Positions 2,100 through 4,921 of a stretch of DNA of 6,652 nt are shown piece by piece. Position 1 is the first letter of the stretch. Each line of letters opens with the position of its first letter. The stretch is from a virus. Lineage: Duplodnaviria > Heunggongvirae > Uroviricota > Caudoviricetes. The notes under the pieces were generated by a model, which had not been told where the DNA came from, searched no databases, and saw only the letters and a program-made list of their open reading frames with translations. The stretch covers positions 1 to 6,652 of the IMG/VR virus record IMGVR_UViG_2671180921_000008, one strand, 5' to 3'. A program made the position numbers and the translations under genes.

Positions 2100-2137
2100 G
2101 GGGACGAATCATCCCCGACCTGATTGTTTAAAGAGCG
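2100..2137 (-). promoter_or_regulatory. nutR: nutR: boxA CGCTCTTTAA and boxB hairpin GGGGATGATTCGTCCCC
   Basis: On the minus strand: boxA consensus at 2137..2128, an 11-nt spacer, then boxB at 2116..2100. The identical boxB recurs in nutL downstream of pL. Confidence 0.65.
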
Positions 2138-2144
2138 GTGTTAC

Positions 2145-2345
2145 TTATGCAGTTGTTTTTTTGTTGCTTGGGAAGGGCTTTATTTCTTCCGCATAAACGC
2201 TTCCATCAGCGTTTATAGTTAAAAAAATCTTTCGGCCTGCATGAATGGCCTTGTTGATCGCGCTTTGATATACGCCGAGATCTTTAGCCGTCTTGGTTTG
2301 ACCAAAGCGCATTGCATAATCTTTCAGGGTTATGCGTTGTTCCAT
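2145..2345 (-). CDS. cro: Cro repressor (lambda Cro, near-identical)
   Basis: 66-aa translation [66 protein letters not shown] matches lambda Cro as I recall it, apart from one V/I difference. It is transcribed divergently from cI. Confidence 0.95.
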
Positions 2346-2369
2346 ACAACCTCCTTAGTACATGCAATC

Positions 2370-2439
2370 ATTATCACCGCTAGAGGTAAAATAGTCAACA
2401 CGCACGGTGTTAGATATTTATCCCTTGCGGTGATAGATT
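2370..2439. promoter_or_regulatory. Right operator OR1-OR2-OR3 with divergent promoters pR (toward cro) and pRM (toward cI)
   Basis: OR1 TATCACCGCTAGAGGTA (2372-2388), OR2 CAACACGCACGGTGTTA (2396-2412), OR3 TATCCCTTGCGGTGATA (2419-2435). pR on the minus strand: -35 TTGACT (2398..2393), -10 GATAAT (2375..2370). pRM on the plus strand: -35 TAGATA (2411-2416), 17-bp spacer, -10 TAGATT (2434-2439). The cI ATG at 2446 implies a leaderless transcript, as in lambda. Confidence 0.9.
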
Positions 2440-2445
2440 TAACGT

Positions 2446-3159
2446 ATGAGCGCAAAAAAGAAACCGTTAACACAAGAGCAGCTTGAGGACGCACGTCGCC
2501 TTAAAGCTATTTATGAAAAAAAGAAAAATGAGCTTGGCTTATCCCAAGAATCTGTCGCAGACAAGATGGGGATGGGGCAGTCAGGTGTTGGAGCTTTATT
2601 TAATGGCGTCAATGCATTAAATGCTTATAACGCTGCATTGCTTGCAAAAATTCTCAACGTTAGCGTTGAAGAATTTAGTCCTTCAATCGCCAGAGAAATC
2701 TACGAGATGTATGAAGCGGTTAGTATGCAGCCATCACTCAGAAGTGAGTATGAGTACCCTGTTTTTTCTCATGTTCAGGCCGGGATGTTCTCGCCTGAGC
2801 TTAGAACCTTTACCAAAGGTGATGCGGAGAGATGGGTAAGCACAACCAAAAAAGCCAGTGATTCTGCATTCTGGCTTGAGGTTGAAGGCAACTCAATGAC
2901 AGCTCCGGCAGGATCGAAACCAAGCTTTCCTGATGGAATGTTAATCTTGGTTGACCCTGAACAACCTGTTGATCCTGGTGATTTCTGTATCGCTAGACTT
3001 GGTGGTGATGAATTCACATTCAAAAAACTGATCAAAGATAGTGGGCAAGTATTTTTACAACCACTTAACCCGCAGTTTCCAATAATCCCATGCAATGAGA
3101 ACTGCAACATTGTAGGCAAGGTTATCGCCAGTCAATGGCCTGAAGAGACGTTTGGGTGA
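2446..3159 (+). CDS. cI: CI repressor (lambda cI allele, about 95% identical by my recollection)
   Basis: 237-aa translation [54 protein letters not shown]... aligns end to end with lambda cI, including the Ala-Gly cleavage region and the C-terminal S24 peptidase domain. About 10 substitutions, e.g. T3A in the N-terminal arm. Confidence 0.97.
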
Positions 3160-3189
3160 AGCACATAGCATTCCTGGATAAAAATACAG

Positions 3190-3232
3190 ATTCCCTTTAT
3201 GGGAAATGAATCTATAATTCCCAAAGAGGGAA
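3190..3232 (+). promoter_or_regulatory. Putative promoter-operator of the toxin-antitoxin cassette: two TTCCC-N5-GGGAA palindromes flanking a TATAAT
   Basis: Palindrome 1 TTCCCTTTATGGGAA (3191-3205); perfect -10 TATAAT (3213-3218); palindrome 2 TTCCCAAAGAGGGAA (3218-3232). This is the usual autoregulated TA operator layout. The -35 is weak. Confidence 0.45.
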
Positions 3233-3244
3233 CTACATCGGATT

Positions 3245-3532
3245 ATGAAGGTCTTAAACGTAGAGAAGCTTCACAGTTTTAGCCGGAAACACAATCAGGC
3301 CAAGGGGGCTTTAGACTCTTGGTATGATGAAGTGAGAAGAGAAAACTGGAAAACGACTCAAGACATACGGAATAGATTTAATTCTGCCGACTTCCTTCCT
3401 GACAACAGGGTAATTTTTAATATAAAAGGCAATAACTATCGGCTCGTTGTCCAAGTTGTTTACCAAGCAGGAATTGTCATAGTTGAAAAAGTTGGAACTC
3501 ATGCAGAGTACGACAAGTGGAGACTTAAATGA
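3245..3532 (+). CDS. higB: HigB-family toxin (ribosome-dependent mRNA interferase, RelE/ParE superfamily)
   Basis: 95-aa ORF. FNIKGNNYRLVVQVVYQAGIVIVEKVGTHAEYD aligns with E. coli HigB (YgjN) FNVGGNELRVVAMVFFESQKCYIREVMTHKEYD along its full length, as I recall that sequence. The stop overlaps the next start (ATGA at 3529-3532). Confidence 0.8.
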   Translation: MKVLNVEKLHSFSRKHNQAKGALDSWYDEVRRENWKTTQDIRNRFNSADFLPDNRVIFNIKGNNYRLVVQVVYQAGIVIVEKVGTHAEYDKWRLK

Positions 3533-4185
3533 ATCGAACTAGCTGGCGCATCATTAAAAATAGTGAAGAGCATGCTGCAGCTATGGAAAGGCTCATTGAA
3601 CTTGCGTCTAGTGATTTACAACCTGGAACTGAAGATTTTGATGAGTTTGAACTACTAGGCTTGCTTATTGAGCACTATGAGTCACGCGAGTTCCCTATGG
3701 ACAAGCCAGACCCCATAGAAGCAATCAAGTTCCGCATGGATCAGCAAGGCCTCTCTTATGCCGACATGAAACAATACATTGGCTCAGCATCTAAAGTATC
3801 TGAGGTCTTAAATCGTAAGCGTCCATTAAGTCTTTCAATGATCCGTAGACTGCATGACGGGCTTGGCATTCCTGCAGATATCTTAATTCAAGATATGAGC
3901 GCAATTGAATGGAGTCTGGTTGACGCTGAGGAAGAAGAAACGACAATGACTAGCGTCATTGTTCAGTGTGAGTCAGCCGCCACATCATCTTCTCCTTATT
4001 ACGCTGAAAAGGCTACAGAATCTTACGTTTCAAAAATGTTGTTCAGCGCAGTAAGGGGTAACGGCGAATGCAAAGAAAAACGGAATGTTTTTTCTTTGAT
4101 AAGTAACTTGTCATCAAGTTTCACAGCAGCTAACAACCTGAATGACGAAATGACTCCTGACGGGAATTACTCATTAGTATCATGA
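3529..4185 (+). CDS. higA: HigA-like HTH antitoxin with a ~95-aa C-terminal extension (candidate chaperone-addiction region)
   Basis: 218-aa ORF. Residues ~1-123 align with E. coli HigA (YgjM): IEAIKFRMDQQGLSYADMKQYIGSASKVSEVLNRKRPLSLSMIRRLHDGLGIPADILIQ versus IAVIRTLMDQYGLTLSDLPEIGSKSMVSRVLSGKRKLTLEHAKKLATRFGISPALFID. Residues ~124-218 are an acidic, Ser-rich extension with aromatic patches (SPYYAEKATESYVSKMLF). Start and stop are both translationally coupled (ATGA) to the neighbours. Confidence 0.75.
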   Translation: MNRTSWRIIKNSEEHAAAMERLIELASSDLQPGTEDFDEFELLGLLIEHYESREFPMDKPDPIEAIKFRMDQQGLSYADMKQYIGSASKVSEVLNRKRPLSLSMIRRLHDGLGIPADILIQDMSAIEWSLVDAEEEETTMTSVIVQCESAATSSSPYYAEKATESYVSKMLFSAVRGNGECKEKRNVFSLISNLSSSFTAANNLNDEMTPDGNYSLVS

Positions 4186-4586
4186 AAATTGAACTCATTA
4201 GCAAAAAAGTTGAACGCTTGGTTATGAAGCAGCTAGAAGCTGATTCAGCGGCAAAAAAAAACCTGAACGCAACCGTTAAGCTGAATAATGAACTTTACAC
4301 TAATGTGAAGGATTCAAAGCTATTTAGAGTGAGATATTTTACCTCCATAACCATTGAAGGTAGACTAGAGATGGACATCACATACGACTTTGATTTTCGG
4401 TCAGAAGATGATTTTTCCCATGAAATGGCAAAATCACATGAGATAAGGTCCATTGCTCCCACTATGGCATATCCCTATATAAAAACATATGCCGAGCAAA
4501 TTATCCTCATGTCAAATCTTGGTAGGTTCAATCTTCCTTACTTTGATTTCTTGACCAATCCCATGGAAACGAACAGCAATAAGTGA
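4182..4586 (+). CDS. SecB-like chaperone (third component of a TAC-type module)
   Basis: 134-aa ORF. YPYIKTYAEQIILMSNLGRFNLPYFDFL aligns with E. coli SecB [31 protein letters not shown], and VKLNNELYTNVKDSKLFRVRYFTSITIEG with SecB [31 protein letters not shown], as I recall SecB. It is coupled to the antitoxin stop by ATGA and has no hydrophobic transmembrane stretch, so it is not RexB-like. Confidence 0.65.
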   Translation: MKIELISKKVERLVMKQLEADSAAKKNLNATVKLNNELYTNVKDSKLFRVRYFTSITIEGRLEMDITYDFDFRSEDDFSHEMAKSHEIRSIAPTMAYPYIKTYAEQIILMSNLGRFNLPYFDFLTNPMETNSNK

Positions 4587-4595
4587 AATCCCCCA

Positions 4596-4621
4596 CCCGG
4601 CCTCAGCGCCGGGTTTTCTTT
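4596..4621 (+). terminator. Rho-independent terminator closing the cI/cassette transcription unit
   Basis: Perfect 6-bp GC stem CCCGGC (4596-4601) / GCCGGG (4608-4613), 6-nt loop, then TTTTCTTT. It lies 10 nt after the last cassette stop, just upstream of OL. Confidence 0.7.
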
Positions 4622-4774
4622 GCCTCTCGATCCCCACACCTAATAACACCATAACCAATTGTATTTATTGAAAAATTTATAGATACAACTTGCTAAATAG
4701 TGCAATTCTGATCCCTCACCTACCAAACAATGCCCCCCCTGCAAAAAATAAATCCATATAAAAAACATACAGAT

Positions 4775-4837
4775 AACCATCTGCGGTGATAAATTATCTC
4801 TGGCGGTGTTGACACACATACCACTAGCGGTGATACT
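4775..4837 (+). promoter_or_regulatory. Left operator OL3-OL2-OL1 with promoter pL (rightward in this window)
   Basis: OL3 AACCATCTGCGGTGATA (4775-4791), OL2 TATCTCTGGCGGTGTTG (4795-4811), OL1 TACCACTAGCGGTGATA (4819-4835). -35 TTGACA (4809-4814), 17-bp spacer, -10 GATACT (4832-4837). Near-identical to the lambda pL/OL region as I recall it. Confidence 0.88.
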
Positions 4838-4882
4838 AAACACATCAGCAGGAAGCTGGAAGCCAAACGGAACAGATTGGCA

Positions 4883-4921
4883 GGCTCTTTAACATTGATG
4901 GAATGGGGATGATTCGTCCCC
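4883..4921 (+). promoter_or_regulatory. nutL: nutL: boxA GGCTCTTTAA and boxB hairpin GGGGATGATTCGTCCCC
   Basis: boxA at 4883-4892, 12-nt spacer, boxB at 4905-4921 (GGGGA/TCCCC stem). boxB is identical to nutR on the other strand and lies about 45-80 nt downstream of the pL start. Confidence 0.65.

Follow-up and report, generated by a model that had tools for sequence, protein, structure and literature searches.

A boxB hairpin and N-protein head of probable separate specificity flanking the lambda-type immunity region of a lambdoid prophage

The recognition of boxB hairpins by the N proteins of lambdoid phages is a textbook case of arginine-rich peptide/RNA recognition, and the lambda N–boxB pair is a standard RNA-tethering tool; to our knowledge, structural studies have so far been limited to the lambda, P22 and phi21 pairs. 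The boxBs of lambda (GCCCUGAAGAAGGGC and GCCCUGAAAAAGGGC) have a 5-bp stem and a purine-rich pentaloop, and the lambda specificity class (boxB GCCCUGAARAAGGGC, arginine-rich motif MDAQTRRRERRAEKQAQW) is exemplified by phages HK544 and CL707. The P22/H-19B class has the boxB GCGCUGACAAAGCGC, the arginine-rich motif of P22 gp24 being GNAKTRRHERRRKLAIER, and phi21 combines a boxB with a CUAACC loop and the motif GTAKSRYKARRAELIAER. The DNA considered here is a stretch of 6,652 nucleotides from a virus of the Caudoviricetes (IMG/VR record IMGVR_UViG_2671180921_000008, positions 1 to 6,652), hereafter called the window; it constitutes a lambdoid prophage's early control region, reversed in orientation compared with the lambda map. 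Its two nut sites share a 17-nt hairpin that is very probably, to judge from its sequence and context, the boxB of a distinct N specificity class. Neither the boxB nor the motif of the lambda class is present in the window, nor is the P22/H-19B boxB (in comparison with P22 and mEp234), nor the loop or motif of phi21, with which the hairpin has in common that it is not of the pentaloop type. It is considered highly likely that the two sites are nutL and nutR and that the N antitermination system of this lambdoid prophage forms a specificity class of its own.

The 17-mer GGGGATGATTCGTCCCC occurs in exactly two copies in the window, one in each early transcript, and no chance match was found in 200 dinucleotide-preserving shuffles with up to 2 mismatches allowed (0 expected). 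Each copy is preceded by an exact boxA GCTCTTTAA (Table 1), at a spacing of 12 nt in nutL and 11 nt in nutR, and the stretch common to nutL and nutR extends 6 nt beyond the hairpin (23 nt, 96%). Both early transcripts thus have the layout of nut sites, with boxA and then a short hairpin within about 8-12 nt, downstream of promoter-like sites (PL and PR). The order PL-boxA-boxB-leader-N and PR-cro-boxA-boxB-cII, with terminators downstream, is like that of lambda, and the boxA form and the architecture of the PL leader are shared with P22; the leader around the nutL boxA is present in P22 and also in phage Gally. The boxA of lambda, GCUCUUA, is unlike the consensus GCUCUUUAA of the window. An earlier note on this DNA, made by a model from the letters alone, had claimed a boxA followed by an identical, non-lambda boxB at both sites, and the exact matches bear this out, as does the absence of the lambda boxB sequence from the window. 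Identity of the two boxBs holds in the window but is a trait of only the Escherichia coli subset of these elements, as the nutR copies of Enterobacter and Erwinia differ. The position of the hairpin, 10-12 nt after boxA, was found to be kept in related elements.

Folding of the 17-mer with ViennaRNA yielded a 7-bp stem (U6.G12 included) with a triloop at -9.7 kcal/mol, representing 88% of the ensemble, and the boxB variants from other loci have the same predicted fold. The earlier note had offered this structure and, as an alternative, a 5-bp stem with a 7-nt loop; the first is the minimum free energy (MFE) structure and the second is not, yet covariation cannot separate them. In either form the hairpin is unlike lambda boxB. 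An Rfam scan of the window gave no match at the nut sites, the cIII thermoregulator being the sole scoring element.

The first gene of the PL operon, starting 240 nt downstream of the PL -10 element, encodes N, a protein of 68 residues (MKAREIRKLERARKHKEATAKRKNIDRVSMVVSLAGANRKKVECGSCCLPNVAIYAAGYRKSKQLTAR) with a GTG start codon; GGAGG is found 6 nt 5' of the start, inside a ribosome-binding stretch conserved with Gally. N matches the Pfam family PF25694 N_peptide (E 5.9e-16, 59.2 bits, cut-off 27.9) over profile positions 44-100 only. Over its residues 21-68, N shares 65% identity with P22 gp24 (gp24 residues 53-100), whereas residues 1-20 have no counterpart in gp24, of which residues 1-52 are replaced by these 20 unrelated residues. 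From this distribution of similarity, N is read as a P22-type antiterminator body joined to a different, shorter, putative RNA-binding head, and the non-lambda N-terminus proposed in the earlier note is upheld. The head (residues 1 to about 20) is an arginine-rich motif, MKAREIRKLERARKHKE, with K or R at 8 of the first 16 residues; as in lambda N the motif begins at residue 1, but it has no tryptophan, and the C-terminal half of lambda N is not of the P22 type. AlphaFold predicts a helix over residues 2-40 (pLDDT 86-87 at residues 1-20) followed by a low-confidence tail, in agreement with what is generally known of N proteins.

The linkage between this boxB and this N head holds across genomes whether the RNA or the peptide is taken as the starting point. 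Searches with the N peptide reached 35 loci (30 in IMG/VR, 3 in Enterobacter and 2 in Erwinia), and the core GGGAUGNUUCGUCCC is present in nutL of all 35. In the 30 IMG/VR loci the nutL core lies 97-393 nt upstream of N, and 26 have the core in nutR also, three of the other four having less than 2 kb of upstream sequence. The three Enterobacter loci, each with a different immunity region, carry GGGGAUGAUUCGUCCCC in nutL and AGGGAUGUUUCGUCCCU in nutR, and the two Erwinia genomes gave the same result, one with AGGGAUGCUUCGUCCCU in nutR; the nutR boxB of Enterobacter and Erwinia can be written AGGGAUG(U/C)UUCGUCCCU, and that of the relatives overall is AGGGAUGUUUCGUCCCU, AGGGAUGCUUCGUCCCU, GGGGAUGUUUCGUCCCU or GGGGAUGGUUCGUCCCC. 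In the opposite direction, a scan of IMG/VR with a pattern of boxA plus boxB returned 43 stretches, in which each nutL with readable downstream sequence is followed by an open reading frame (ORF) beginning MKARE[ILV][RK]K, or VKAR[EG]IRK in the E. coli forms, with the sole exception of locus L017. A large protein database contains N forms of 68 aa from E. coli and of 80-82 aa and 90 aa from Enterobacter, in which every head starts MKAREIRKLERAR and C-termini of two kinds follow; some such proteins are named "transcriptional antitermination N peptide" in databases. More divergent heads (MKARELRKRLRAEAHRE, MKAREVRKLARASEHRE and MKAREIKKLRRAKEYRS) still accompany the same nutL boxB, and over all loci three kinds of C-terminus are joined to the pair: P22-like (…AG(H/Y)RKS..TAR), lambda/phi21-like (…KPLI) and …THIIK. 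An unrelated N-terminus accompanying the same boxB, which the earlier note had named as a finding that would speak against it, was looked for and never seen. The same class of nut sites and N flanks 18 different inter-nut immunity cassettes, among which the lambda cassette of the window is a singleton. Thus, by comparison of these loci, boxB and the N head are seen to travel as a unit. Among 5,426 complete E. coli genomes, 10 carry the pair, which also occurs in prophages of Enterobacter and Erwinia; a peptide scan of a contig collection found 2 loci only, because that collection holds one genome per species.

Variation among these loci bears on how the hairpin may be recognised. The boxB 17-mers comprise GGGGAUGAUUCGUCCCC (57 copies), AGGGAUGUUUCGUCCCU (29 copies), AGGGAUGCUUCGUCCCU (5 copies), GGGGAUGUUUCGUCCCU and CGGGAUGGUUCGUCCCG (3 copies each) and GGGGAUGGUUCGUCCCC (1 copy). 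Over 21 distinct contexts the closing pair is G-C in 10, A-U in 8, G.U in 2 and C-G in 1; its covariation score was reached by 0 of 500 shuffles, and slid registers pair in just 39-57% of cells. The outer boxB helix is supported by these comparisons, because its closing pair varies yet is never unpaired, and the inner U6.G12 and G7-C11 pairing is neither backed nor contradicted by variation. Position 8 may be A, U, C or G, and positions 2-7 and 9-16 are constant. Direct read-out by the peptide is suggested because U6.G12, G7-C11, U9 and U10 are invariant: the fixed bases U6, G7, U9, U10, C11 and G12 are probably those that the peptide reads. A UUCG tetraloop was considered and rejected, since position 8, which would close it, takes all four bases. 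On the protein side, M1, K2, A3, R4, E5, K8, R11 and A12 are invariant in the N heads, and R7 and H15 nearly so; on a helical wheel (100 degrees per residue) R4, R7, K8, R11, A12 and H15 line up along one side, with the variable residues 6, 9, 10, 13, 14, 16 and 17 along the other.

A recent event of gene conversion or duplication linking the two leaders, with no selection for a common ligand, could also have made the nutL and nutR copies identical, as the identity over 17 nt and 96% identity over 23 nt in the E. coli subset might suggest. The Enterobacter and Erwinia copies, however, differ at 3 positions with the structure kept (a G-C to A-U change plus the free loop base), and the same core is kept across the 18 immunity contexts. 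These structure-preserving differences and the constancy of the core point to selection instead of recent copying, which is very improbable as the explanation.

In Gally/IME10, the nutL flanks and the N leader are about 80-81% identical to those of the window, but the boxB is UCCCGCCGAAAUGCGGGA, the motif is …NARNRRRARRQAQRE, and the C-terminus of N is phi21-like; between aligned sequences, Gally and the window thus show what appears to be a cassette-like swap of boxB plus N motif within kept flanks. In mEp234, nutR has boxA and cII ribosome-binding site flanks like those of the window, with a P22-like boxB in between. Alternatively, the hairpin might have some conserved structural role in the early leaders, for example as a site of processing, of pausing or of Rho-related signalling, with N recognising some other element or none, given that the inner positions are all invariant with pairing there unproven, and that other conserved hairpins are close by (ACGCAUCAACNGAUGCGU after nutR, CCAAAG/CUUUGG after nutL). 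Such a role is improbable: besides boxA the hairpin is the sole element common to nutL and nutR, it stands at boxB distance from boxA, it is swapped within conserved flanks for known or annotated boxBs of other phages, it tracks the N head and neither the leader type nor the C-terminal type of N, and in the island array described below it occupies a slot equivalent to those of the lambda and P22 boxBs. The preferred interpretation is therefore that of a boxB, which, judged by these comparisons, is in effect a small exchangeable cassette whose replacement requires a matching change in about 20 codons of N.

Several other sequences were noted in the vicinity of the nut sites. The mEp234 nutR (L051 3776-3800) contains GGACATTCGTCC between boxA and its P22-like boxB; it shares ATTCGTCC with the present boxB within homologous flanks, and may be either a vestige of the class discussed here or a second hairpin belonging to nut sites of the H-19B type. 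In the window, the hairpin ACGCAUCAACAGAUGCGU (2068-2098) follows the nutR boxB on the PR transcript and is conserved in the Enterobacter and Erwinia relatives; it adjoins, on the downstream side, the expected start of PRE, and its E. coli form alone scores as a terminator when read on the opposite strand, where T6 comes after it. In the N leader, about 4931-4951 pairs with about 5041-5062 in both MFE and centroid folds (z = -5.5), and the arms of this long-range helix covary with Gally (UUUGAUG/CAUCAAA vs UUGGAUG/CAUCCAA) and with P22; it resembles the RNase III-sensitive N-leader hairpin of lambda. The sequence CCAAAG occurs right behind the nutL boxB (4923-4928) and again near the Shine-Dalgarno sequence of N (5052-5057), and both copies can pair with CUUUGG at 4938-4943, so that the leader elements could fold into alternative structures; CUCUUU of the nutL boxA is likewise able to pair with AAAGAG behind boxB.

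Independent support for the hairpin being a boxB is drawn from the leader sequence of a satellite-like island of the phage-inducible chromosomal island (PICI) kind, with an integrase gene, a leader of about 650 nt, alpA, antA/antB, ash and a primase-helicase gene. The island was found in three IMG/VR contigs (L063, L100 and L110) and in enterotoxigenic E. coli (ETEC) H10407 (L144), and a search of 5,426 complete E. coli genomes found at least 80% of its leader in 32, that of ETEC H10407 being one of them. The leader (L100 4700-5320; L063 about 1490-2100; L110; L144 9001-9661, which is NC_017633.1 338555-339215) holds a tandem array of boxA/boxB units, with exact lambda and P22 boxBs among them, that, toward alpA, runs as follows: a promoter-like site, GCCCUGGAGAAGGGC, boxA, CAGCUGAAAAGCUG, boxA and further hairpins; then CGCUGACAAAGCG (P22 type), the boxA UGCUCUUUAACA and the variant CGGGAUGGUUCGUCCCG of the present class, which is thus preceded by a consensus boxA; then an H-19B-like nutL with GCGCUGACAAAGCGC, followed by GCCCUGAAAAAGGGC (exact lambda nutR); and finally UCACGCCUAAUAGCGUGA (phi21-like), CCUGCCGAAAUGCAGG (Gally-like, with compensatory stem changes), a 15-bp hairpin (-19.7 kcal/mol) and alpA. 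Adjacent P22 and lambda boxBs occur, among the IMG/VR contigs, only in L063, L100 and L110. The arrangement suggests a leader in which the N proteins of several helper-phage classes would permit read-through into alpA and so induce the island; alternatively, the array may titrate N as a decoy. Helper phages, including lambda and phi80, activate alpA transcription in the published PICI EcCICFT073, for which the inducer is unknown (Fillol-Salom et al. 2018, PMC6092414). EcCICFT073 was examined as a precedent and rejected, the boxB array being absent from it, so its alpA experiment cannot support the idea of a multi-boxB input. In the literature collection searched, no paper was found that connects PICIs to N antitermination.

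Several points weigh against the assignment of the hairpin and N to a class of their own, beginning with the fact that the whole case rests on sequence. All stem positions other than the closing pair are invariant, so that triloop and heptaloop are indistinguishable, and part of this invariance is imposed by the DNA patterns used in the scans (GGGA…TCCC fixed), only the peptide-first searches being free of this bias. Many of the loci are closely related or represent a single contig retrieved two times, and the counts of loci given above overstate the number of independent events. Locus L017 has both nut sites without a recognisable N within 900 nt of nutL, the only recognisable ORF there being HNH endonuclease-like (by eye). 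N itself is short, has a GTG start, and was not called by PGAP in strain Z1323CEC0019, although the module of that strain is 100% identical to that of the window.

The last of these points would fit the possibility that the 68-aa ORF is not a working antiterminator, being either an N that has decayed in a defective prophage or an exclusion factor of the Nun kind, with the nut sites as relics. N is shorter than P22 gp24 (100 aa) and lambda N (107 aa), the neighbouring DUF2528 gene is split, an insertion sequence (IS) element is located nearby in Z1323CEC0019, and directly 3' of the N stop codon is a remnant of about 65 nt, out of frame with the present N, that is 97-99% identical to the 3' end of N of HK544, CL707 and Gally (lambda/phi21 C-terminal type; phi21 itself was outside this comparison) and is labelled by PGAP, in that strain, 'regulator, incomplete, missing N-terminus'. 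By homology, the remnant is taken to be the scar of an N replacement. Against a loss of function stand the more than 40 contigs of E. coli, Enterobacter and Erwinia in which the N ORF is intact, with the head conserved while the rest diverges down to 22-68% identity, and the fact that the 68-aa form has everything that gp24 has after its RNA-binding region. A Nun-like factor targets the nut sites of other phages, whereas here cognate sites are found in the two early operons of the element itself, and the C-terminus of N is that of the antiterminator gp24 and is probably unlike that of Nun. A non-working N is accordingly regarded as improbable.

If N is a working antiterminator with its own boxB, the boxA GCUCUUUAA of the PL and PR transcripts, which is followed 11-12 nt later by the hairpin GGGGAUGAUUCGUCCCC, would bind host NusB/NusE. 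The recognised core would be GGGAUG-N-UUCGUCCC, in which the closing pair would need only to be paired and position 8 would be free, and the P22 gp24-like C-terminal half of N would contact NusA and RNA polymerase. The modified polymerase would then pass the three terminator-like sites on the PL transcript downstream of N (Table 1), of which the one after ral is a candidate target of N, as well as rightward terminators.

The earlier note had also claimed that the antitermination module was exchanged apart from the cI/cro/operator module of a lambda-type immunity region, and the comparisons support this claim. The CI and Cro proteins resemble those of HK544, a phage of lambda immunity, with 95% and 98% identity, and the cro-OR-cI and OL-PL stretches have 83-93% DNA identity with the annotated lambda-immunity regions of HK544, CL707 and mEp234, so that the window is assigned by homology of cI, Cro and the OR and OL operators to the lambda immunity group. 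The flanking stretches 1755-2150 (cII-nutR) and 4843-5279 (nutL-N) instead have 95-99% identity with prophages of other immunity, which on the cII-nutR side share the window only up to 2150. Recombination joints are placed at 2131-2150 (cro end/boxA) and 4843-4856 (PL transcript start), because the lambda-immunity and other-immunity matches overlap there, and both joint sequences are common to many lambdoid phages; by recombination at these two joints the nut/N module would have been joined to the lambda cI-cro-operator cassette. Lambda immunity with a foreign N/nut module is already documented and is textbook mosaicism: in mEp234 and HK106 (EF120460, EF120461) the cI, cro and operators are those of lambda, whereas N is of the H-19B type and the boxB is GCGCUGACAAAGCGC. 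With mEp234 (EF120460), whose boxB is P22-like, as a precedent, the exchange of modules in the window is unsurprising. Like mEp234, HK544 and CL707, the window has lambda cI/cro/operators with variable flanking modules, but the N/boxB pairs of those phages and HK106 are of the lambda class or H-19B/P22-like, and that of the window belongs to neither.

Table 1. Features of the window.
Feature	Position	Strand	Remarks
O gene	245-1120	−	four iterons at 642-736
T5orf172/MUG113 (GIY-YIG-related) gene	1074-1718	−	
cII	1751-2047	−	
nutR	2137-2100	−	
nutR boxB hairpin	2100-2116	−	same as nutL copy
nutR boxA CGCTCTTTAA	2128-2137	−	exact GCTCTTTAA at 2128-2136; right behind cro stop codon, as in annotated lambda-immunity phages
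Lambda-immunity cassette, right part (cro, OR, cI)	2131-3159		92-93% DNA identity to HK544, CL707
cro	2145-2345	−	
PR promoter TTGACT-17-GATAAT	2398-2370	−	inside OR operators; homology with HK544, CL707, mEp234 annotation
cI	2446-3159	+	
HigB toxin gene	3245-3532		
Long helix-turn-helix antitoxin-like gene	3529-4185		
orf134	4182-4586		
Lambda-immunity cassette, left part (Timm terminator, OL, PL, transcript start)	4587-4856		
Terminator	4595-4614		
PL promoter TTGACA-17-GATACT	4809-4837	+	inside OL operators; operator repeats; homologous to annotated pL/oL of HK544, CL707, mEp234
nutL	4883-4921	+	
nutL boxA GGCTCTTTAA	4883-4892	+	exact GCTCTTTAA at 4884-4892; about 46 nt downstream of PL -10 element
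nutL boxB hairpin GGGGAUGAUUCGUCCCC	4905-4921	+	exact 17-mer; nutL core invariant in 35 of 35 peptide-found loci
N leader long-range helix	4931-5062	+	between nutL and N ribosome-binding site
N gene	5077-5283	+	GTG start, 68 aa
Remnant, 3' end of displaced lambda/phi21-type N gene (…TCVGRQKMKLGSKPLI*)	5281-5346	+	out of frame with present N
ral	5412-5612		
Terminator-like hairpin with T-run	5601-5622	+	PL transcript, after ral; candidate N target
DUF7446 gene	5640-5882		
Terminator-like hairpin with T-run	6009-6030	+	PL transcript
DUF2528 gene, split	6056-6423		
Terminator-like hairpin with T-run	6448-6465	+	immediately 5' of cIII
cIII thermoregulator RNA (Rfam RF01804)	6483-6541		

The remaining genes of the window include some that are unlike those of the lambda map. 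The place of rexA/rexB between cI and OL (3245-4586) is occupied by genes encoding a HigB toxin, a 218-aa antitoxin-like helix-turn-helix protein with a long C-terminal extension, and a 134-aa ORF product for which a Pfam search gave no match; mEp234 likewise has a toxin-antitoxin pair in the rex position, hicAB, where the window has higB and the helix-turn-helix gene. The T5orf172/MUG113 gene sits between cII and the replication gene O and overlaps the listed start of O. The DUF2528 gene is represented by two ORFs, 6056-6211 (profile positions 1-21) and 6226-6423 (positions 43-104), and is probably a frameshifted pseudogene. None of the GenBank phages covers more than 42% of the whole window, and none of the complete E. 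coli genomes covers more than 85% of 1700-5400 (cII to N), the best match being 93% identical; the mosaic of lambda immunity, higBA and MKARE-type N appears rare.

The protein family to which N is assigned is not new; the novelty lies in its RNA partner and in the probable specificity class. Neither DNA nor peptide searches of 50,697 GenBank phage records found the pair: no record holds the middle part of the nutL-N stretch, or nutR, at the DNA level, and the peptide search was added because a lone 17-mer is below the reach of BLAST. Searched against the GenBank phages, the 80-aa form of N gave a match to P22 gp24 in its middle part only. The best full-length lead, Erwinia phage Midgardsormr38, was rejected on account of its other motif and its boxB CUACCGCCGCUUGCGGUAG. 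A sequence search of the PDB gave chance matches only, and a search of 8 million full texts did not find the RNA or peptide sequences.

This natural pair differs in hairpin architecture from those of lambda, P22 and phi21 and is probably orthogonal to them. The bolder proposal, that the MKAREIRKLERAR peptide and the GGGAUGNUUCGUCCC hairpin represent a structurally new orthogonal recognition mode, with satellites possibly using the boxB as one input of a multi-boxB leader, is put forward tentatively and is rather doubtful at present; such a mode may involve a closed stem, one pair of which is a U.G wobble, and a tri- or heptaloop that contains UU, and neither a GNRA-like pentaloop nor tryptophan stacking. 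If confirmed, the multi-boxB leader would be a concrete mechanism by which a satellite senses many helper phages, and could outweigh the main finding. The N–boxB pair itself would add a case of short helices reading RNA and possibly a new tethering reagent, and the comparative data indicate which nucleotides and residues are worth mutating. For the lambdoid phages, the pair illustrates how fine their mosaicism can be, for a 17-nt RNA and some 20 codons, with several hundred to about 2,800 bases between them, are kept together through the exchanges around them.

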